Shown piece by piece: positions 354 through 23,759 of a DNA stretch of 43,690 bases. Position 1 is the stretch's first letter; every line of letters starts with the position of its first letter. A program made the position numbers and the translations under genes. The notes under the pieces are model-generated. The model was not told the DNA's origin, did no database searches, and saw only the letters and a list, made by a program, of their open reading frames with translations. The DNA comes from Gammaproteobacteria bacterium (GTDB lineage Bacteria > Pseudomonadota > Gammaproteobacteria > Burkholderiales > SHXO01). The DNA lies in the NCBI GenBank assembly GCA_041499435.1, contig JBGQKF010000001.1, forward strand, positions 1 to 43,690. Reading direction: 5' to 3'.

Positions 354-1856
354 ATGGACCCTGCGATAGTCGCCCAGCGTGTGGACACCCCAAGATATAG
401 AATGCTGATGTCGCGAGAGCCCGAGGTCCGAGCGAAATCAGTGCTGGTGCGCCCTATTCAACTTGCCGTCGCGGTGTTTGCACTGACGCTCACGCTCGCG
501 CTTGCGGCACTTGCGCTGTTCACGTGGCTGGACTTCAAGCGCGTCGAGTCGATCCGATCGCACGTGAACCGCACCGAGCTGCTGGAACAAAGCGCATCGC
601 TGTTGAAGGAAGCACAAGCGCTCGCGGCCGCCGGTTCCACACCTCCGAACGCGAAGATTGCGCAGATCTGGGACAAGCTCGCCCAGATCCCGATCCGCGG
701 CGCACCGGTCCGAGAGGTCACTCGAGAGCGCCTCGCACAACTGGACGGCCTGCTGAAACAGGCGCAAACCGATCCGGGCAGCGCCTTACCCACCGCCGGC
801 AAGATCATCGATCAGATGCTCGACCGGGAGACAGCGATTCAATCCGATCTCCTGGATGCGGTCTATGTGCACACGCGCTTCGAGTGGCGCATTTCTCTGA
901 TTGCGCTGGTCGCATTTCCAGGCATGCTCGCGCTAGCCTTGTGGGCATGGCGGCAGCGCATTTTTCGGCCGATCAACAATCTCAGGTACTTTCTTGCACG
1001 CCTGTCCGACGGCGACTTTACCCCGGTGACGGTAGCCGGCATCGATCCTCTGCTGGTGCCGCTGTTCGAGAACTACAACATGATGGTGACGCGGCTCGAG
1101 CAGCTCGAGCAGGCCAACCGCACGCGCACGCTGCTCCTCGAGAAGGAGGTGAGGGCCGCGACCGAGGCGCTGCTGAAGCAGCAGCAGAGTCTGGCGCGCG
1201 CTGAACGGCTGGCCGCCACCGGCGAGTTGTCCGCCATTCTCGCGCACGAGCTGCGCAACCCGATTGCAGGAATCCAGATCACCATAGCGAACCTGCGGCG
1301 CGATATTTCCGATGCATCGCTGGGCGAGCGCATCGACCTCGTGAGCGCGGAGCTGCAGCGCATTACCCGCCTGCTGAACGGACTCTTGCAGCAGTCCGGC
1401 CACGTGCCCGAACCGGCGCGTGCGGTAGCCGTGGATAGCCTGCTGCAAGAGCTTGCTACACTGATTCGCTATCAGCTTCCGCCCCAGATCAAACTGGAGG
1501 TGGACGCGCAGGCAGGACTCGAGTGCCGGCTGCCCGAAGATGGCCTGCGGCAGGCCGTGCTCAATCTGGTCCTGAACTCGGTACAGGCCATGCAGCAGGC
1601 GCCGGGAACCGTGACGATTGAGGCAAACCGCAATGGGCCATCGCTCGTTCTCCACATCACCGATGAAGGGCCGGGATTTCCCGCAGAAGTACTTAACGGG
1701 ATTCGGCCGTTCGTCACTTCGCGAGATTCCGGCACCGGGCTCGGTCTGGCGATCGTGCGGCGCTTCGCGAAGGATCTCGCGGGCGAGCTCAAGCTGCAAA
1801 ACCGCAATCCGCACGGGGCCTGCGTTACGCTTACCGTGCCGTGCATACAGCCATGA
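354..1856 (+). CDS. Two-component sensor histidine kinase (two TM segments, HAMP-like linker, HisKA, HATPase_c)
   Basis: H-box AILAHELRNPIAG, N-box LNLVLNSVQAM, G1 DEGPGF and G2 GTGLGLAIV. Hydrophobic segments flank a ~130 aa periplasmic region. The stop overlaps the downstream regulator start (ATGA). The start is uncertain: ATG 354, or ATG 402/408. Confidence 0.85.
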   Translation: MDPAIVAQRVDTPRYRMLMSREPEVRAKSVLVRPIQLAVAVFALTLTLALAALALFTWLDFKRVESIRSHVNRTELLEQSASLLKEAQALAAAGSTPPNAKIAQIWDKLAQIPIRGAPVREVTRERLAQLDGLLKQAQTDPGSALPTAGKIIDQMLDRETAIQSDLLDAVYVHTRFEWRISLIALVAFPGMLALALWAWRQRIFRPINNLRYFLARLSDGDFTPVTVAGIDPLLVPLFENYNMMVTRLEQLEQANRTRTLLLEKEVRAATEALLKQQQSLARAERLAATGELSAILAHELRNPIAGIQITIANLRRDISDASLGERIDLVSAELQRITRLLNGLLQQSGHVPEPARAVAVDSLLQELATLIRYQLPPQIKLEVDAQAGLECRLPEDGLRQAVLNLVLNSVQAMQQAPGTVTIEANRNGPSLVLHITDEGPGFPAEVLNGIRPFVTSRDSGTGLGLAIVRRFAKDLAGELKLQNRNPHGACVTLTVPCIQP

Positions 1857-3244
1857 CTGAGACGCTGCTTCTGATCGAAGACGAATCGCTGCTCAGCGCG
1901 GAGCTCGTGCGCCACTTTCATCGCGAGGGCTGGGAAGTGCTGGAAGCGGCCAGTTTGCAGCAAGCAAAGCGGCTGTTGGTCGATCAGCGTGTGCAGCCCC
2001 TGGTCGTGGTATCGGACATGAGCCTGCCCGACGGCAACGCGTTGGACCTGCTCGAATCAGTGCGCCCGCACGCGACGGGTGGCGAGTGGGTGTTTCTCAC
2101 CGGCTATGGCGGCGTAGCCGATTCGGTTCGTGCGCTGCGGCTGGGCGCATACGATTTTCTGGAGAAGCCCTGCGAGCTCGCGCGGCTCGATCTGGTGGTG
2201 AGCGGAGCCGCGCGCAGCGCACGTGCTCAGCGCCAGCTGCGCGAGCGCGCAGCGCTGCAGAACCGCCGTTATACGCCGGCCGCATTCCTCGGCAGGAGTG
2301 CAGCAGCTCGGCACGTTCGCGAAATGCTGGACAAGCTGGCGCGTACATCGATCAGCACTTTGCTGCTCACCGGCGAAACCGGCACCGGCAAGGGGCTGGC
2401 GGCGCGAATACTGCATCACACCGGGGCGCGTCGCGAAGGTCCCTTGATCGAAGTGAACTGCGCCGCCCTGCCTCATGACCTGCTCGAGTCCGAGTTGTTC
2501 GGTCACGAGCCCGGGGCGTTCACGGACGCGAAGGCGCGGCGCCGCGGACTGATGGAGCAGGCCAATGGCGGCACCATCTTTCTCGATGAGATCGGTGAGC
2601 TCAGCCTGGGGCTCCAGGCGAAACTGCTGTCCGCCATCGAAGACCGCCGACTGCGCCGACTCGGAGGCAGCACGCAGATCGAGATCGACGTCCAGATCAT
2701 CGCTGCAAGCAATCGCAACTTGTTCGAGCGTGTGCGCGAAGACGCGTTTCGCAGCGATCTCTATCATCGCATCGCGGTGTTCACCCTGGAGCTTCCTCCG
2801 CTGCGAGCGCGCAAGGACGATCTCGACGACCTTGTCCCCCTGTTCATGGAGGAGTACAACGCCAAGGCAGGCAAATCGATCCGCACTGTCCCCGACTCCG
2901 TGTGGTCGATACTGCGCGCATACGATTGGCCCGGAAACGTGCGCGAGCTTCGCAACGCGATCGAGCGCTGCGTTTTGCTGTCGGACACACATACGTTGGC
3001 AGCGGAGTGGCTGCAATTCCCAACAGCTCGGGGTATGGAAACCGCGTCCAGGACTCGCGATCGTCTATCCATCGACCTGCCTCTGGACGGCAGCATGTCT
3101 CTGGAGGACATGGAGAAGCAGATCCTGATCGCTGCGCTGGAAAGATCGAATCACAGCGTGAGCGCTGCAGCGAGGCTGCTTAGCGCCTCACGCGAGACAG
3201 TACGCTATCGCGTGAACAAGTTCGGACTGAAGTTTCGTGAGTGA
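1853..3244 (+). CDS. Sigma-54-dependent response regulator (NtrC family: receiver + AAA+ EBP + Fis-type HTH)
   Basis: Receiver VVVSDMSLPDG, Walker A GETGTGKG, Walker B IFLDEIGEL, sigma-54 contact loop ESELFGHEPGAFTDA, FRSDLYHRI, and a C-terminal HTH (AAARLLSASRETVRYRVNKFGL). I chose ATG 1853 (MTETLLLIEDE), which overlaps the kinase stop as ATGA. Confidence 0.9.
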   Translation: MTETLLLIEDESLLSAELVRHFHREGWEVLEAASLQQAKRLLVDQRVQPLVVVSDMSLPDGNALDLLESVRPHATGGEWVFLTGYGGVADSVRALRLGAYDFLEKPCELARLDLVVSGAARSARAQRQLRERAALQNRRYTPAAFLGRSAAARHVREMLDKLARTSISTLLLTGETGTGKGLAARILHHTGARREGPLIEVNCAALPHDLLESELFGHEPGAFTDAKARRRGLMEQANGGTIFLDEIGELSLGLQAKLLSAIEDRRLRRLGGSTQIEIDVQIIAASNRNLFERVREDAFRSDLYHRIAVFTLELPPLRARKDDLDDLVPLFMEEYNAKAGKSIRTVPDSVWSILRAYDWPGNVRELRNAIERCVLLSDTHTLAAEWLQFPTARGMETASRTRDRLSIDLPLDGSMSLEDMEKQILIAALERSNHSVSAAARLLSASRETVRYRVNKFGLKFRE

Positions 3245-3626: not shown

Positions 3627-4085
3627 TCACAACGATCGTTCGGACCCCGGCAACGCGATCGGGCCATCGGCGCGCGAGGCCATGAAGAGGCGATGGAGGA
3701 GCGCTCCCGACAGCACAGCCGGCACGAACACCCATGTCTCCCAGGAGGGTGCAGCGAGCAGCGCGATGCCCGGACCGGGGCAATAGCCGCTGATCCCCCA
3801 CCCCACACCGAAGATCAGCGCGCCGAGTATGAGCGGCTGGTCGATGTCTTCTGCAGTGGGCAAACGGAACGTGCCTTCCAGGACCGGCGCCTTGCGGCGC
3901 AGAACGAGGCGGAACGCGATCGCCGTCACCGCCACTGCGCCACCGAGCACCAACAGCAGGCTCGCGTCCCAGTCGCCGGTGACATCCAGGAAACCAAGCA
4001 CTTTGCTTGCATGTGTCATACCGGCGACAGCAAGCCCGAGTCCGAACACGAAGCCCGAAATGGCAACGCTGACGTACTTGTTCAT
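3627..4085 (-). CDS. YeeE/YedE-family (half-size, 4-TM) putative sulfur-compound transport protein, second of a pair
   Basis: MNKYVSVAISGFVFGLGLAVAGM..., with GxxxG-rich TM helices and ISGYCPGPG. ATG 4085 overlaps the upstream gene stop (TGATG). The longer 246 aa ORF extension overlaps the neighbouring gene and I discarded it. Confidence 0.7.
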   Translation of the reverse strand: MNKYVSVAISGFVFGLGLAVAGMTHASKVLGFLDVTGDWDASLLLVLGGAVAVTAIAFRLVLRRKAPVLEGTFRLPTAEDIDQPLILGALIFGVGWGISGYCPGPGIALLAAPSWETWVFVPAVLSGALLHRLFMASRADGPIALPGSERSL

Positions 4086-4540
4086 CAGTACACTCCGAAC
4101 ATGTGACGCACGACAAACGCAGTGACGATACCGGTTACCAGAAAAATGCACGTGGCTGCAAGGGACCGCACTGAGAACCGCCCCAGGCCGCATACGCCGT
4201 GTCCGCTGGTGCATCCGCTTCCAAGCGAGGTGCCGAACCCGACCAGCACGCCGCCAAGTCCGAGCAGCCAACCCGGGAAGCTCAACCGCGGCGCAGGCGC
4301 ATTCCCAAACAGTCTGTAGTAGATGGCGGCGCCTGCCACGAGTCCGCCAAGAAACAACAGACGCCACAGCACATCGCCCTGCTTCAACGCGAGCAGGCCG
4401 CTCGTGATGTTGCTGATGCCGGCGATGCGGCCGTTCAGCAACAGCAGCAGCACCGCTGCGCCGCCGATCAGCAGCCCGCCACCCAGTGCACTCAAGGGAG
4501 TGAAGTTATGCATGGATTTGTCACCGAGGGAAAATGACAT
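4085..4540 (-). CDS. YeeE/YedE-family (half-size, 4-TM) putative sulfur-compound transport protein, first of a pair
   Basis: GGLLIGGAAVLLLLLNGRIAGISNITSG and GSGCTSGHGVCG, the conserved Cys-containing motif of the YeeE/YedE family. Highly hydrophobic. Confidence 0.75.
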   Translation of the reverse strand: MSFSLGDKSMHNFTPLSALGGGLLIGGAAVLLLLLNGRIAGISNITSGLLALKQGDVLWRLLFLGGLVAGAAIYYRLFGNAPAPRLSFPGWLLGLGGVLVGFGTSLGSGCTSGHGVCGLGRFSVRSLAATCIFLVTGIVTAFVVRHMFGVY

Positions 4541-4667: not shown

Positions 4668-5252
4668 TCAGCCCGCCGCCCTGCCGATCCTGGTCGCTTC
4701 CGGGACCTCGATGAGCTTGCCGGTCTTAACGTCGTAGATGTAGCCGTAGATCGGGATCGACTTCGGAACCAGCGGATGATTGCGGATGCGCGCCACGTCA
4801 TCGACCACGCTGCCCGGGAGATCGCTGATGGTATGCCATTTGATGTATTTACCGACGGTGGACCCGGGACCCGTGCCCACGTCGCGCCAGCCTTTCTCGT
4901 CGATGGTGGCGGTCTCGAGACTCTTCTCCAGCAGACCGGAAATTACATCATCCGTGAACAACTCCATGCCGCAATTGGTGTGGTGGATGACGAACCACTC
5001 TTTGGTGCCGAGCAGCTTGTAGGAGATCACCAGCGAGCGGATGGCATCGTCGCTGGCTCGCCCGCCGGCGTTACGAATCACGTGTGCATCGCCTTCGGAG
5101 AGCCCGGCGTACTTGGACGGATGCAGCCGCGCGTCCATGCACGTCAAAATGGCAAACTGTCGGGCGGGCGGCAGCGGCAGCTTGCCTTTGTCGCCAAAGC
5201 TCGCCGCGTACTTCTGGTTGGCGCTCAGCACTTCCTCGAGGACTTTGCTCAT
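4668..5252 (-). CDS. Beta-class carbonic anhydrase-fold enzyme, clade D (Rv1284 / COS-CS2 hydrolase-like)
   Basis: Zinc-ligand motifs CMDARL and HHTNCGM, plus HVIRNAGG. Strong SD (GAGGAG) 6 nt before ATG 5252. Confidence 0.85.
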
Positions 5253-5556
5253 GGGGTCTCCTCACAGATTTTAGTTGGTCCACAGCGCGACCGTTTGGGG
5301 CATCCGTGCAGTATGTCCGAGCCGGCAGCATGGTCGCAACGAACCAATCGCGATAAGCATATGAACATGCACACAACCAACGCAGGAATGGATCACGCGC
5401 GAATCTGTTGCGCAACATTGCGCGTACGTTCGCAGATGGCTTCATGATCTCGGCCGCACATCTACCTTCGGCGAGCTGAGGTGGGTGGTGCAAAGGCCCG
5501 GTCCGGGAGCTGACTCTGACGAGCGCTGCGCGGCGACATGCAGCACATCATGGGAA

Positions 5557-5589
5557 GCTGCGGGTGAACGGCGTGCGTCCACCCGCAGC
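5557..5589 (-). terminator. Stem-loop immediately downstream of the PQQ dehydrogenase gene (possible terminator without a clear U-tract)
   Basis: A 10-bp stem GCTGCGGGTG / CACCCGCAGC with a 13-nt loop begins 15 nt after the stop codon. The trailing sequence is TTCCCATGATG, so the T-run is weak. Confidence 0.4.
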
Positions 5590-5604
5590 GTGCTAACACT
5601 TAGC

Positions 5605-7332
5605 TTACTTGACCGCGAACACCCATACGACACCGCCTTGCGGCACGTCGGGGTCAAAGCCGATGTTCAATGCCGCCAGACCGTCTTGAATGCGCTGTGC
5701 ATCCACGCCCCAGCCGGACTGCACCGCGATGTACTGCGTGCCATCGACTTCGTACGACACCGGCGCTGCCGTGATGCCGGAGTTGGTGACGAACTCCCAC
5801 AACAGCTTGCCGCTCTTCGCATCGAGTATGCGCAGCTTGCGATCATTGGTGCCGCCGACGATGACCAATCCGCCCGCCGTCGTCAGCACGGAACCGAACA
5901 GCTGCGTCTTCGGGAAGTTGTACTGCCACGCCTTCTTGCCGGTGGCCGGATCCCAGGCCTGCAATTCGCCGATATGATCCCAGCCCGAGCGCACGCCAAG
6001 CTTGATGTCCTCGACTTTGGTGCCGAGCCATAGCTGACCGGGAGTGAGCTCGACTTTCTCGCCCTTGAACGATTGCACCAAGTTCTCGTTGGCAGGCACG
6101 TAGAGCAGCTTGGTCTTCTCGTTGTAGGCACCCGAGGGCCAATCCTTTCCGCCCCACAGCGACGGCGCAAACTCGACCTTCTTGCCGATCACCGGCGTGT
6201 ACTGCATATCGCGCGTGAGCTTGCCGGTGTTCTTGTCGATGTTGGTCCATACGTTGGTATAAACGTATTTCCAGCCGTCCACGAACTTGATGCTGTCGGG
6301 ACTGCGCTCCAGCACCCAGAAGATCGCGTCGCGGCCCGGGTGCACCAGCGACTTGATCTTGCGACCGTTCTTCTCCAGGTCGATCAGCACCGGCGGATCG
6401 ATCTCGTCCCAGTCCCACGAGTCGTTCGCGTGGTACTGGAAGTAACTCTTGATTTTGCCGGTCTCGGGATCGAGCGCGACGACCGAGGTGGTGTACAAGT
6501 TGTCGCCGGGATGCGCGTCGCCCGGCCACGGTGCCGCGTTGCCCGTCCCCCAATAGATCAGGTTCAGGTCCGGATCGTAATTACCCGTGATCCAGGCCGA
6601 GCCGCCGCCGCTCTTCCAGTCATCCCCCTGCCACGTTTCCGAGCCGGGCTCGCCCGGACCGGGCACCGTATACGTGCGCCACAGCTGTTTGCCGGTGTTG
6701 GCGTCATACGCCGCGATGTAGCCGCGCACACCGTACTCGCCGCCGGAACCGCCGACGATCACTTTACCGTTGACGACGAGCGGCATCAGCGTGAGGTAGT
6801 GGCCCTTCTTATAGTCCTCTACCGTCGCATCCCACACCTGCTTGCCGGTCTTCGCATCGATCGCCACGAGGTGCGCGTCCACCGTGGCAAGGAACAGCTT
6901 GTCCTGCCACAGACCTGCGCCGCGATTGGTGGGGTGCAGCTGGAATAAGTCTTCGGGTAATTGCTTCTTATAGCGCCAGATCAGCTCGCCGGTCTTGGCG
7001 TTCATCGCCAGTACCTGGTTTTGCGGCGTCGTTACGAATGCGACGCCGTTGTTTACGATCAGCGGGGCCTGATGGCCTTCGCCCACTCCAGTGGAAAACG
7101 TCCACACTGGCGTGAGCCGCGACACATTACCGGTGTTGATCTTGTCCAGCGGACTGTAGGCATGGCCGTCATAGGTGCGGCGGTACAGCAACCAGTTGCC
7201 GGGCTCGGGATTATTGAGTCGTTGCTGCGTGACTGGGCTGTAGTTCGCGATCTCGCCAGCCAGTGCCGCGGCGGACGACATCGCAGCGGCCAGGGTCAGC
7301 ACGCCGACTAATGTACTGCTGCGTTTGTTCAC
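5605..7332 (-). CDS. Periplasmic PQQ-dependent dehydrogenase, methanol/ethanol (MxaF/XoxF/ExaA) family, atypical
   Basis: Family motifs GGSGGEYGVRGY, DPDLNLIYWGTGNAAPW and NDSWDWDE, with repeated W-containing propeller blades. Signal peptide NKRSSTLVGVLTLAAAMSSAAALA. I chose the GTG at 7332 because GGAGGAG lies 5 nt upstream; ATG 7365 is the alternative. Confidence 0.85.
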   Translation of the reverse strand: MNKRSSTLVGVLTLAAAMSSAAALAGEIANYSPVTQQRLNNPEPGNWLLYRRTYDGHAYSPLDKINTGNVSRLTPVWTFSTGVGEGHQAPLIVNNGVAFVTTPQNQVLAMNAKTGELIWRYKKQLPEDLFQLHPTNRGAGLWQDKLFLATVDAHLVAIDAKTGKQVWDATVEDYKKGHYLTLMPLVVNGKVIVGGSGGEYGVRGYIAAYDANTGKQLWRTYTVPGPGEPGSETWQGDDWKSGGGSAWITGNYDPDLNLIYWGTGNAAPWPGDAHPGDNLYTTSVVALDPETGKIKSYFQYHANDSWDWDEIDPPVLIDLEKNGRKIKSLVHPGRDAIFWVLERSPDSIKFVDGWKYVYTNVWTNIDKNTGKLTRDMQYTPVIGKKVEFAPSLWGGKDWPSGAYNEKTKLLYVPANENLVQSFKGEKVELTPGQLWLGTKVEDIKLGVRSGWDHIGELQAWDPATGKKAWQYNFPKTQLFGSVLTTAGGLVIVGGTNDRKLRILDAKSGKLLWEFVTNSGITAAPVSYEVDGTQYIAVQSGWGVDAQRIQDGLAALNIGFDPDVPQGGVVWVFAVK

Positions 7333-7423
7333 GTTATCTCCTCCAGTTACAACGCCAGGAAACATCTGGCTCGTGAGGATCCATCGTCGGCCCACCCCGC
7401 CATTGCTGCGGCGGTGCGGCGCT

Positions 7424-8038
7424 TCAGACGGACCGGTTTCCGACCTTGCCGCGGAGCGGCGCGGCCACGGTGAGTGCCCCGTCGACGATCTTCAGAGGAA
7501 GAATCGGCAACGGCCGGGGTGCCGGCCCGGAAACCACCGCCGCCGACTTCCGAGGGTCGTACTCGGAAGCGTGGCAAAAACAATGGAGCAGCTGCTTTTC
7601 CCTGTTCCAGCCGTTCACTGGACACTGCGCATGCTTGCAGATGGCGGAGTAGGCGACGATGCCATCGGCCGCATAAGGCCGGGTGCCCTCGTCGAGCGTA
7701 TCGGGCTCGAAACGCAGCAGGAGGATTTCATTGAGGCGCGAGCCGCTTCTCACTTCCTTGCTCGCTGGATCGAGCGGCCAGGCCATGATCTGTTGCTCGC
7801 CGAGGACCATATCCTCGGGCTTGATCTCGCGCCCGGAACGATCGCCTTCGGCGAACACGAGGCGATCTCCGGCTTTGGGCAGTGCACTGCTTTCGGCCGA
7901 GGGCTCATCGGCTCGCGCCGCGGAAAGCGTGACGCTGGTACCAATTGCAATCTGGAGAAAGGCGCGCCGGGAGCACGAGCAGCCTTCAGCGGCCACGTTG
8001 GCGGCGCTCGCGCCTGTGCCCGTTGTCGTATCAGACAC
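7424..8038 (-). CDS. Tat-exported Rieske [2Fe-2S] protein (bc1 / arsenite-oxidase small-subunit type)
   Basis: Twin-arginine motif CSRRAFLQIAIG. Cluster-binding boxes CKHAQC and CFCHAS (C-x-H-x-x-C ... C-x-C-H), including the disulfide cysteines typical of high-potential Rieske proteins. The GTG start at 8038 has no obvious SD, so the start is uncertain. Confidence 0.8.
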   Translation of the reverse strand: MSDTTTGTGASAANVAAEGCSCSRRAFLQIAIGTSVTLSAARADEPSAESSALPKAGDRLVFAEGDRSGREIKPEDMVLGEQQIMAWPLDPASKEVRSGSRLNEILLLRFEPDTLDEGTRPYAADGIVAYSAICKHAQCPVNGWNREKQLLHCFCHASEYDPRKSAAVVSGPAPRPLPILPLKIVDGALTVAAPLRGKVGNRSV

Positions 8039-8447
8039 GCTGCGACACCGGCGGATTGTAGTGTGCGTTCATGCCGGATCTCCCCCTTGCTTCGACCAAC
8101 GTCAGGTTGGCCCATACACGCTCATGATTACGACGAAACCCCGCCGGCAAGGCGCCTCCTCGCGGCAGCAGTCCCACGTATTTACTCATGCTAGCTCTTC
8201 CGGGAATCTAACTCAACGGGGGGCCGGCTTGAAGGAACCGTTGGTTAGGACGATATGCCAATGGACCGCTGGCACTCAGTTGCTGGCGCGCAGAACTCGA
8301 ATGCATCGTTCGGCACAAGCCGATTCCATGATGTGATGGAGCGGATGCGAGCGCGACGCACGGCTTAGACTGCTATGATCTTCAAGTCGTGTATCGAGAC
8401 CCGTCGTCCGACGCGACCTCGAAAGATCAGCGCGAGGAGGCAGAATC

Positions 8448-22943: not shown

Positions 22944-23759
22944 ATGGATCGGATTCTACCCTATCTCCTGTGTTCGGCCGCGTATGCCGCGATCGCCCTC
23001 GCGCTGATGCGCGTGCTTTCGCGCTCGGCTCCGGCCCGGCAGCCCGCCGTCAGGCAACTGCACCTGGCGGTTGCGCTGCCGCTCGCTGTCCATACGCTTC
23101 TGCTCTACCGCGCGGTGTTCAGCGGCAACGAAATGTATTTCGGCGTCGGCAACTCGATCTCCGTCATCATATGGCTCACGGTGCTGATCTACTGGGTGGG
23201 CGGTTTTTTCTACCGGCTGGAAGGGCTGCAGGTCTTCATCACCGCTGCCGCCGCCGCGCTGGTCTGGTCACCGCTTGCGCTGCCCTCAGTGCGGCCGCTT
23301 GCGCACACCGACCTGCCCGCATTCCGCCTGCATCTGCTGATTTCGCTCCTGGCGTACAGCCTGTTTACCATCGCTTCGCTGCAAGCGCTCACCATGGCGG
23401 TGCTCGAGCGTCGCCTGCACGGGGGACGTCTGCCCAGGTTCCTGCAGTCGCTGCCGCCGCTGCTCACCATGGAGCGCATTCTGTTTCGCATCATTGCACT
23501 GGGATTCATATTGCTGACGTTGACGCTGGGCAGCGGCATGCTGTTCTCGGAAGAGCTGTTCGGCAAGCCGCTGCAGTTCAACCATAAGGTCGTGTTCGGC
23601 ATCATCGCCTGGTGTCTTTTCGCCGCGCTGCTGGTGGGTCGCCAGATATACGGCTGGCGCGGACGGGTCGCGCTGCGCTGGACGCTGGCCGGCTTTCTGG
23701 TGCTGATCCTGGCGTATATCGGCAGCAAGTTCGTGCTCGAGATCATTCTGCACCGTTGA
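22944..23759 (+). CDS. Cytochrome c assembly family inner-membrane protein (YpjD/CcsA-like)
   Basis: Polytopic membrane protein divergent from ffh, which is the conserved ffh-ypjD arrangement. W-rich C-terminal helices. Confidence 0.7.
   Translation: MDRILPYLLCSAAYAAIALALMRVLSRSAPARQPAVRQLHLAVALPLAVHTLLLYRAVFSGNEMYFGVGNSISVIIWLTVLIYWVGGFFYRLEGLQVFITAAAAALVWSPLALPSVRPLAHTDLPAFRLHLLISLLAYSLFTIASLQALTMAVLERRLHGGRLPRFLQSLPPLLTMERILFRIIALGFILLTLTLGSGMLFSEELFGKPLQFNHKVVFGIIAWCLFAALLVGRQIYGWRGRVALRWTLAGFLVLILAYIGSKFVLEIILHR

Follow-up and report, generated by a model that had tools for sequence, protein, structure and literature searches.

The window analysed here is the whole stretch of 43,690 nucleotides (nt) that makes up positions 1 to 43,690 of contig JBGQKF010000001.1 from a Gammaproteobacteria bacterium, in which a gene for a Rieske [2Fe-2S] protein and a gene for a dehydrogenase of the pyrroloquinoline quinone (PQQ)-dependent methanol/ethanol family follow each other on the reverse strand. 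An earlier note on this DNA had described the first as an open reading frame (ORF) at 7424–8038 with a twin-arginine translocation (Tat) leader, both Rieske boxes and the disulfide cysteines, and the second as a quinoprotein ORF with a general secretory (Sec) signal at 5605–7332, 91 nt downstream on the same strand. Coordinates and motifs of the first hold, as do the coordinates and the reading of the second, whose product scores above the TIGR03075 cut-off. Together the two genes are probably a bicistronic cassette, in which a periplasmic quinoprotein dehydrogenase is encoded along with a Rieske protein that would serve it as dedicated electron acceptor or subunit, the most likely role suggested by gene linkage.

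7424..8038 (-): Rieske gene; ORF of 204 amino acids (aa), GTG start; predicted Tat-exported bc-type (disulfide-bearing) [2Fe-2S] protein
7333..7423 (-): intergenic spacer of 91 nt between the Rieske and dehydrogenase genes
5605..7332 (-): PQQ dehydrogenase gene; 575 aa, GTG start, methanol/ethanol family, Cys-Cys-less lanthanide-type clade

The Rieske and dehydrogenase genes are neighbours across lineages

Searching an alignment of the dehydrogenase clade against one genome per species gave at least 490 matching stretches, of which the best 80 were examined (69–74% identical, as are the Bradyrhizobium and Stellaceae homologues of the window enzyme). Most come from Bradyrhizobium, the others from Stellaceae and other alphaproteobacterial metagenome-assembled genomes (MAGs). 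In 78 of the 80 genome loci the gene directly before the dehydrogenase, in the same orientation, encodes a Rieske homologue (43–60% identity by tblastn), and a T-R-R-x-[LIV]-[LIV] motif is conserved in these upstream homologues. Of the two exceptions, L069 carries its Rieske gene 4.2 kb downstream of the dehydrogenase within the same cluster, and L047 has no Rieske gene within the retrieved stretch. In the other direction, an alignment of the Rieske proteins was searched against metagenome contigs and the best 80 of 566 confirmed matches were examined; the dehydrogenase lies directly downstream of the Rieske gene in 63 of the 74 informative loci, the remaining six of the 80 being too short to tell. 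This count of orthologue neighbours, proposed by the earlier note as a check, comes out in favour of the pairing from both sides.

Plasmids allowed the edge of the clade to be located. Among 72,556 plasmids, 332 records hold a homologue of the dehydrogenase, and of the records listed only the nine best (43.6–62% identity) also match the Rieske protein, the two genes being adjacent in all eight of those examined. The nine belong to Roseomonas marmotae, Methylobacterium aquaticum, Azoarcus sp. KH32C, Alteromonas macleodii Te101, three Paracoccus species (four records) and Deinococcus aetherius. The next tier, at no more than 39.7% identity (Burkholderia, Azospirillum, Sphingobium and others), is of the ExaA/PedE/PedH type; the three of these plasmids that were opened have a cytochrome c gene or pedF (3/3), a binding-protein gene (2/3) and the vicinal Cys-Cys (3/3). 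Since the break in identity between 43.6 and 39.7% is accompanied by this change of neighbour, the switch from cytochrome c to Rieske coincides with a clade boundary. No homologue of PedF, of the cytochrome c or of the binding proteins was detected by tblastn in any Rieske-linked locus.

The pair occurs in Alpha-, Beta- and Gammaproteobacteria and in Deinococcota, and the flanks beyond it share nothing between lineages. Two gene orders are found, Rieske then dehydrogenase and, in Paracoccus and Alteromonas, dehydrogenase then Rieske; adjacency thus survives rearrangement. Complete pairs also occur in duplicate. Bradyrhizobium strains carry two on the same strand a few kb apart (827–3190 and 5342–7704 in L004; 5435–7704 and 11622–13702 in L037), and the M. 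aquaticum plasmid has two (L088 and L091) that lie about 300 kb apart and whose Rieske paralogues are 38% identical. Across 12 pairs, a set that includes these two old paralogous pairs of M. aquaticum, the pairwise identities of the Rieske proteins correlate with those of the dehydrogenases (r = 0.83), a value reached by 0 of 5000 Mantel permutations. The pairing is conserved in more than 140 independent loci, four major lineages and two gene orders, and is not due to chance.

The Rieske protein is of the bc type and carries a predicted Tat leader

The features of the Rieske protein are as follows.

7910..8038 (-): predicted Tat signal peptide, residues 1–43, from the sequence and homologue conservation; cleavage putative
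7952–7972 (-): twin-arginine motif S23-R-R-A-F-L-Q29, read from the sequence
7622..7639 (-): Rieske box I, C134-K-H136-A-Q-C139; Cys and His ligands and first disulfide Cys
7559..7582 (-): Rieske box II, C153-F-C155-H156-A-S158-E-Y160; Cys and His ligands, second disulfide Cys, Ser and Tyr positions

In the leader, SRRAFLQ is followed by a weakly hydrophobic h-region of 15–16 residues and by an A-R-A|D site. R24 and R25 are invariant or nearly so, with RR invariant in 24 homologues, and AxA-like sites are retained in the leaders of the homologues. The protein conforms to the Tat motif and is thus a predicted Tat substrate, for which both export and cleavage are expected. Similarity to its relatives begins at about residue 23, precisely at the Tat motif, and the 204-aa reading of the ORF is therefore the real one. 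The NCBI gene call, in contrast, is 144 aa long (P0128; 7424–7858, start at Val61), whereas relatives are called at 200–208 aa; the public call therefore loses the Tat leader together with the first strand of the fold. A Stellaceae record is shortened as well, with a Rieske protein of 123 aa in L083 versus 198 aa in L082 from identical DNA.

The product matches the Pfam Rieske family (PF00355, E = 3e-9). Alignments of 18 and of 24 homologues show no variation at the four cluster ligands or the two disulfide cysteines, S158 of box II is nearly invariant in the PQQ-linked set, and box I has a Gln where CxHxGC usually has Gly. Mutagenesis of bc1 complexes has shown that Ser and Tyr at these box II positions raise the potential of the Rieske cluster. 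Box II of the window protein reads C-F-C-H-A-S-E-Y, so that the Ser and Tyr of the potential-raising bc1 positions are both present, and this signature points to a high potential of the cluster. Among solved structures, the window protein is nearest to the Rieske protein of Thermus thermophilus (1NYK/3FOU, E = 2.4e-35, residues 55–201). An AlphaFold model from the 24-sequence alignment reached a predicted local distance difference test score (pLDDT) of 84.7, with the folded part confident, and Foldseek searches with it returned 1NYK at the top (template modelling (TM) score 0.91, root-mean-square deviation 1.9 Å), followed by QcrA and AioB. The modelled fold is thus that of the bc/b6f/Aio class of Rieske proteins.

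Within that class the protein stands apart from the named families. No NCBIfam model covers this subfamily, which gives only partial matches far under the cut-offs to actinobacterial QcrA, b6f PetC, AioB and proteobacterial PetA. An assignment as a bc1 or b6f subunit (PetA/QcrA/PetC) was rejected on scores of 80.2 versus 275 (NF050121), 33.9 versus 97.4 (TIGR01416) and 42.6 versus 250 (NF045928), and no cytochrome b gene is present in the window or in the related Rieske loci. AioB was likewise rejected, with 41.6 bits against the TIGR02694 cut-off of 95.65 and no AioA-like neighbour. The same score speaks against a possibility that the earlier note had raised, namely that the Rieske protein belongs to an arsenite-oxidase-like complex encoded elsewhere, and no molybdenum (Mo) subunit is conserved next to the Rieske gene.

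The dehydrogenase belongs to a clade in which the vicinal Cys-Cys segment is replaced

The features of the dehydrogenase are as follows.

7258..7332 (-): predicted Sec signal peptide, residues 1–25 (...AAALA|GE), from the sequence; cleavage putative
6919..6942 (-): Q131-L-H133-P-T-N-R-G138, in place of the vicinal Cys-Cys ring, from alignments
6736–6738 and 6538–6540 (-): E199 and N265, the other metal ligands, from alignment to PedH
6406..6414 (-): D307-W-D309 (SWDWDE), catalytic Asp and extra lanthanide-marking Asp, from alignment to PedH and controls

A GGAGGAG ribosome-binding site precedes the GTG start at 7332, and the product scores 585.6 bits with TIGR03075 (cut-off 480) and E = 3e-81 with PF01011. 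The amino terminus, VNKRSSTLVGVLTLAAAMSSAAALA|GE, reads as a Sec leader, and mature PDB chains align to the protein only after it. Among solved structures, a lanthanide ethanol dehydrogenase of the PedH type comes closest (6ZCV/6ZCW; E = 5e-105, about 40% identity). E199, N265, D307 and D309 are invariant in the clade, as is the arginine of the NRG motif. A working quinoprotein with intact metal-site and PQQ-site residues is predicted on this basis, and the D-x-D signature suggests that the window enzyme is lanthanide-dependent.

The segment beside PQQ differs from that of the PedH-type enzymes. QL-HPTNRG aligns to their PCCDVINRG with a deletion of one residue, L132-H133 standing for Cys-Cys, and L132 to G138 are invariant in the close clade with the exception of N136. 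Across the 142 Rieske-linked dehydrogenases from genomes, metagenomes and proteobacterial plasmids, all 142 have [LMF]-H-[PNY]-T-[NSK]-R-G instead of Cys-Cys. Most Rieske-linked enzymes show the lanthanide-type SWDWDE, whereas those of Paracoccus, Alteromonas and one of the M. aquaticum enzymes (L088) have the Ca-type SWDWA[AG]; the Ca/lanthanide split known from MxaF/XoxF and PedE/PedH thus recurs within the Rieske-linked clade. Every reversed-order cluster examined is Ca-type, yet L088 is Ca-type and Rieske-first.

Transcription signals and gene neighbourhood in the window

The spacer at 7333–7423 contains no promoter-like or terminator-like site in our scan and folds no differently from shuffled sequences (z = -1.1); the equivalent spacers in other lineages are 25–93 nt long. 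One structured element lies behind the dehydrogenase gene.

5557..5589 (-): GC-rich hairpin of 14 bp, 17 nt past the dehydrogenase stop; -34.8 kcal/mol, z = -3.1, 0 of 200 shuffles as stable

This hairpin is the probable end of a two-gene transcription unit. Its U tail is weak (CUUCCC), and the simple terminator scan therefore did not call it; that scan found no sigma-70 promoter or simple terminator around the two genes, and the region ahead of the Rieske gene gave no sigma-54 promoter either. The flanks at 5253–5604 and 8039–8447, for which the earlier note had reported no convincing ORF, indeed hold only short ORFs overlapping the neighbouring genes, and they give no Rfam match.

The earlier note had also seen no cytochrome c and no MxaJ/XoxJ-type partner in view, and this agrees with searches of the window as well as of the Rieske-linked loci described above. 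A CxxCH scan of all stop-to-stop frames of at least 50 aa found no c-type cytochrome gene in the 43.7-kb window; the three CxxCH strings that do occur in these frames comprise two antisense to known genes and a third in a 54-aa frame. PedF, a Burkholderia cytochrome c and XoxJ/PedG-like binding proteins found no match in the window by tblastn, and no pqq gene is present in it. The sole cytochrome-c-related gene in the window encodes a cytochrome c assembly family protein (PF01578, CcsA/YpjD-like; 22944–23759 (+), beside ffh), which is not itself a cytochrome.

The remaining genes of the window are of the housekeeping kind (MaoC dehydratase, rpoD, dnaG, tsaD, plsY, xerC/D, trmD, rimM, ffh and pilBCD, and further OsmC, coaE, zapD, argJ, secA, lpxC and ftsZAQ), and the arrangement rpoD-OsmC-Rieske-dehydrogenase is kept in close relatives of the source organism. 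Just downstream of the cassette, at 3627–4540 (-), 4668–5252 (-) and 354–3244 (+), are found a YeeE/YedE-like sulfur-transport pair (PF04143, DUF6691), a beta-carbonic anhydrase gene and a sigma-54-dependent two-component system. In a close relative, L180, a related sigma-54 regulator and a carbonic anhydrase are found near the Rieske-dehydrogenase pair.

Lineage variants and additional neighbours

In the reversed-order clusters of Paracoccus and Alteromonas a third gene comes after the Rieske gene, coding for a small Sec-exported protein of 136–153 aa with four conserved cysteines. No homologue of this protein was found in the window or in the 80 genome loci, and the Ca-type branch might thus have a third component of its own. 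In several lineages, genes for further oxidoreductases lie near the cassette: an aldehyde dehydrogenase gene, aldA, in Azoarcus and Paracoccus, and a Tat-exported [2Fe-2S]/molybdopterin oxidoreductase pair (IorAB/aldehyde-oxidoreductase-like) after the cassette in Stellaceae-like MAGs and Roseomonas marmotae.

L085:6471–6911, L087:4177–4587, L089:5475–5936: third gene of the reversed-order clusters; no haem motif, no Pfam match
L082:11793–14544, L084:8484–11229, L069:8998–11857, L047:3411–5708 and from 7797 onward: Mo oxidoreductase genes ([2Fe-2S] subunit and molybdopterin subunit with Tat signal); no cytochrome c subunit

That aldA or the Mo pair follows the cassette in several lineages fits alcohol oxidation and would predict a step from alcohol to aldehyde, and the clusters joined by Mo genes may encode a complete periplasmic alcohol-to-acid route sharing one Rieske carrier.

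Two further contexts were also seen. Outside the Proteobacteria, on the Deinococcus aetherius plasmid pDAETH-2, the pair (L172:4317–6611) has its Rieske gene directly upstream, reads SCCDVVNRG and D-Y-D, and is followed by genes for a substrate-binding protein and an ABC transporter. It seems to stand halfway between the forms linked to a cytochrome and the Rieske-linked forms that lack the Cys pair. On plasmids of Thermus thermophilus and Meiothermus taiwanensis the Rieske homologue (43% identical to the window protein) adjoins a gene for a TauE/SafE-family exporter (L086:5968–7146, L176:3842–5391), which is a second conserved context for this Rieske subfamily.

The clade and PQQ alcohol dehydrogenase type 6a

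The window dehydrogenase clade is apparently PQQ alcohol dehydrogenase (PQQ-ADH) type 6a of Keltjens et al. 2014, whose classification is followed in PMC7356819, PMC8561711, PMC6028718 and PMC4358397. Yanpirat et al. (PMC7356819) assign the plasmid-borne Adh4 and Adh6 of M. aquaticum 22A to type 6a and describe the family as not characterised. The two Rieske-linked dehydrogenases of the M. aquaticum plasmid (at about 144 kb and about 450 kb) are 50–57% identical to the window enzyme, and their positions fit the locus tags Maq22A_1p30675 and 1p32165; by this locus-tag arithmetic we infer that they are Adh4 and Adh6. A third, weaker PQQ match lies on the same plasmid. According to Alessa et al. 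(PMC8561711), Cys-Cys is missing in some members of the group that includes type 6a, and the type is putatively lanthanide-dependent. Further type 6a genes are on record for Methyloversatilis and Methyloferula. The four type 6a papers (PMC7356819, PMC8561711, PMC6028718 and PMC4358397) mention neither a Rieske neighbour nor any electron acceptor. The earlier note had not recognised the pairing from any described quinoprotein system, and the full-text literature search bears this out: with most candidates judged by title and abstract, it found no paper that connects a PQQ dehydrogenase with a Rieske protein, and a Bathyarchaeia preprint and a Methyloversatilis paper among the candidates proved unrelated. 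Keltjens 2014 and Huang 2019 lay outside that search, and a mention there is possible.

Proposed role and alternative explanations

With slightly better than even confidence, we go beyond the cassette itself and propose that a large, widespread and mostly lanthanide-type dehydrogenase clade has the Rieske [2Fe-2S] protein as its physiological first acceptor, perhaps as a stable subunit. An iron-sulfur acceptor would be new among PQQ enzymes, PQQH2 being oxidised by the Rieske centre much as ubiquinol is at the bc1 Qo site, with the Cys-Cys segment remodelled in the proteobacterial branch. The dehydrogenase would be exported unfolded by Sec, bind PQQ and a lanthanide ion in the periplasm and oxidise an alcohol or aldehyde substrate, while Tat would export the Rieske protein in the folded state, with the [2Fe-2S] cluster already in place, before the leader of that protein is removed. 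The Rieske protein would dock on the dehydrogenase and take the two electrons of PQQH2 singly, filling the role that cytochrome cL, XoxG or c550 (PedF/ExaB) has in other family members. Once reduced, it may in turn be oxidised by a soluble carrier of high potential whose gene lies elsewhere, either a c-type cytochrome or a cupredoxin, with a terminal oxidase as the end point, comparable to the Rieske subunit of arsenite oxidase. In the proteobacterial clade, the conserved Leu/Met-His segment that stands for the Cys-Cys ring beside PQQ probably reshapes the electron exit for the Rieske protein. Both proteins are predicted to be periplasmic from their Tat and Sec leaders, which is compatible with this scheme, and as quinol is the usual substrate of the Rieske centre in bc complexes, the oxidation of a protein-bound quinol would be chemically natural. 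Observed are the two proteins with their signals and cofactor-binding residues, the conserved linkage and the lack of a cytochrome c or binding-protein neighbour; what we infer is that the proteins form a complex, which way the electrons flow, where they go next and which kind of substrate is used, besides leader cleavage, lanthanide dependence and the high potential of the cluster.

Several observations weigh against this proposal. The support for the cassette comes wholly from gene linkage, and that linkage has gaps: in 11 of the 74 informative metagenome loci there is room but no dehydrogenase beside the Rieske gene, and on the plasmids of Thermus thermophilus and Meiothermus taiwanensis, too, no dehydrogenase gene adjoins the related Rieske gene. 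Service to the dehydrogenase is hence not the only role of the Rieske family. No fusion of the two proteins occurs among the best 150 of 2122 relatives, all of which are 109–310 aa long. The single-chain model of the dehydrogenase is poor (pLDDT 59, from a shallow alignment of 20 sequences). In PMC7356819, M. aquaticum strains keeping only adh4 or adh6 were built, and the section on them that was consulted gives no growth result. Lastly, the Deinococcus aetherius enzyme is Rieske-linked and yet retains the vicinal Cys-Cys (S-C-C-D-V-V-N-R-G). The earlier note had taken the missing disulfide to fit an altered electron exit route; the correlation stands in 142 of 142 proteobacterial and metagenomic enzymes, whereas the Deinococcus pair shows that disulfide loss is not obligatory for Rieske pairing, so that the link is not general. 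The pairing is therefore older than the loss, or independent of it.

Among the alternatives, the main rival, which we regard as unlikely, holds that the Rieske protein serves the same pathway and not the dehydrogenase directly, as a shared carrier or as acceptor for the next enzyme, for instance the Tat-exported Mo/[2Fe-2S] aldehyde-oxidoreductase-like pair, while the PQQ enzyme uses a cytochrome c encoded elsewhere. The Stellaceae and Roseomonas clusters, with the order Rieske, PQQ dehydrogenase, Fer2, MoCoBD, would suit such an arrangement, as would L069, where the Rieske gene comes after the MoCoBD gene and not ahead of the PQQ gene, and L047, which has Mo genes on both sides. Three-subunit membrane aldehyde dehydrogenases have a cytochrome c subunit, which the Mo enzymes here lack. 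However, no Mo enzyme lies near the pair in the window, Bradyrhizobium, Azoarcus, Paracoccus, Alteromonas, M. aquaticum or Deinococcus; the PQQ dehydrogenase is the only constant neighbour of the Rieske gene, and it is also the dehydrogenase with which the Rieske protein co-diverges. A somewhat smaller chance is left for an accessory role, in which the Rieske protein would activate or protect the dehydrogenase by acting, for instance, on the redox state of PQQ or of the active site, or would serve as a sensor, the bulk of the electrons leaving otherwise. Gene linkage by itself would look alike for an acceptor and for an accessory factor, other quinoprotein clusters do hold accessory proteins without a role in electron transfer (a SoxYZ-like carrier, a metallohydrolase and a CXXCW protein in a control locus), and the reversed-order clusters add the small Sec-exported four-cysteine protein. 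Yet an alternative acceptor gene is linked in no lineage, and a disulfide-bearing bc-type Rieske protein with the Ser/Tyr pair is typical of electron carriers working at cytochrome c potentials, both of which argue against an accessory role.

We consider it very improbable that the dehydrogenase-like protein is a cofactor-less relative resembling the 'acido-empty quinoproteins', with the Rieske centre as the sole redox cofactor of a complex with different chemistry. The Cys-Cys ring, which is reported to be important for methanol dehydrogenase catalysis (cited in PMC8561711), is missing from the window enzyme, pqq genes are absent from the window, and TIGR04528 (acido-empty group A) gives a partial match of 371.8 bits. 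That score is nonetheless far under the cut-off of 650, while TIGR03075 passes its own, and E199, N265, D307, D309 and the NRG arginine are invariant across the clade; on these conserved ligands and scores the cofactor-less reading was rejected. Many host genera (Bradyrhizobium, Methylobacterium, Paracoccus) are moreover PQQ producers. Chance adjacency, with the Rieske protein belonging to an unrelated complex such as bc1 or arsenite oxidase, is effectively refuted by the synteny counts. Broader members of the Rieske family do occur in bc1/QcrA operons or alone, but more than 140 independent loci in four major lineages and two gene orders keep the pair, neither a cytochrome b nor an AioA gene is nearby, and the bc1, b6f and AioB NCBIfam models stay far under their cut-offs. 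The version of this objection that the earlier note had formulated, that the clade normally stands beside a cytochrome c, fails as well, since cytochrome c and PedF neighbours appear, in the loci examined, only at identities of 39.7–40% or below.

If the Rieske protein is indeed the partner of the dehydrogenase, this would add a new acceptor class for quinoprotein dehydrogenases and would explain why the clade stayed uncharacterised, as standard assays take their lead from the Cys-Cys and from a cytochrome neighbour, both of which its members lack. This is also a common clade, with at least 490 stretches at one genome per species, mostly in Bradyrhizobium and other soil Alphaproteobacteria, and more than 560 metagenome matches to the Rieske protein. 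Because most members are lanthanide-type, the pair is relevant to the way in which the widespread lanthanide-dependent metabolism of soils and rhizobia connects to respiration. In practical terms, co-expression of the Rieske gene is advised when these dehydrogenases are expressed, and annotation pipelines should stop cutting off the Rieske Tat leader.

Comparison with known systems

The enzymes of the PedH/ExaF type are the nearest counterpart of the dehydrogenase. As far as can be read for the window from its genes alone, both are periplasmic PQQ propellers of eight blades with a Sec signal, Glu/Asn/Asp ligands to the metal and the additional Asp of lanthanide enzymes, whereas PedH has Cys-Cys, pedF (cytochrome c550) and a binding protein, and the window enzyme has none of these and a Rieske gene instead. 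The XoxF-XoxG-XoxJ and MxaFI-MxaG-MxaJ systems belong to the same superfamily and likewise encode a dedicated periplasmic one-electron acceptor beside the dehydrogenase. Their acceptor, however, is a c-type cytochrome accompanied by a MxaJ/XoxJ-type protein, and homologues of neither occur in the Rieske-linked loci; the solved XoxF and MxaF structures are also less identical to the window enzyme than PedH. In the type II quinohaemoprotein alcohol dehydrogenases (1YIQ, 1KV9, 1KB0), which have a related PQQ domain (E about 1e-90), a built-in first acceptor has been recruited in the form of a fused haem c domain, whereas the window encodes a separate [2Fe-2S] protein.

On the side of the Rieske protein, arsenite oxidase AioAB and the IdrAB/ArxAB-type Mo enzymes with a Rieske subunit offer a similar exit route, from a Rieske protein with Tat signal to a soluble cytochrome c or azurin, and AioB matches the window Rieske model with a TM score of about 0.72–0.75. 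In these enzymes the Mo-bisPGD/[3Fe-4S] partner rides on the Tat signal of the Rieske protein, while the partner in the window is a PQQ propeller with its own Sec signal, and any assembly of Rieske protein and dehydrogenase must therefore happen in the periplasm. The Thermus thermophilus Rieske protein (1NYK/3FOU) has 39–45% identity and the same disulfide and ligand pattern. It works with cytochromes b and c in a membrane bc complex, whereas the window locus is without a linked cytochrome b; the amino terminus of the window protein, moreover, reads as a cleavable Tat signal and not as an anchor, and its box II has Ser where the Thermus protein has Gly.

To our knowledge, the described physiological acceptors of quinoprotein dehydrogenases are c-type cytochromes, cupredoxins, ubiquinone and a fused haem domain only. 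Together, these comparisons suggest that the window encodes a system of familiar plan, in which a dedicated acceptor serves a periplasmic quinoprotein dehydrogenase, with an acceptor of a class undescribed for these enzymes.

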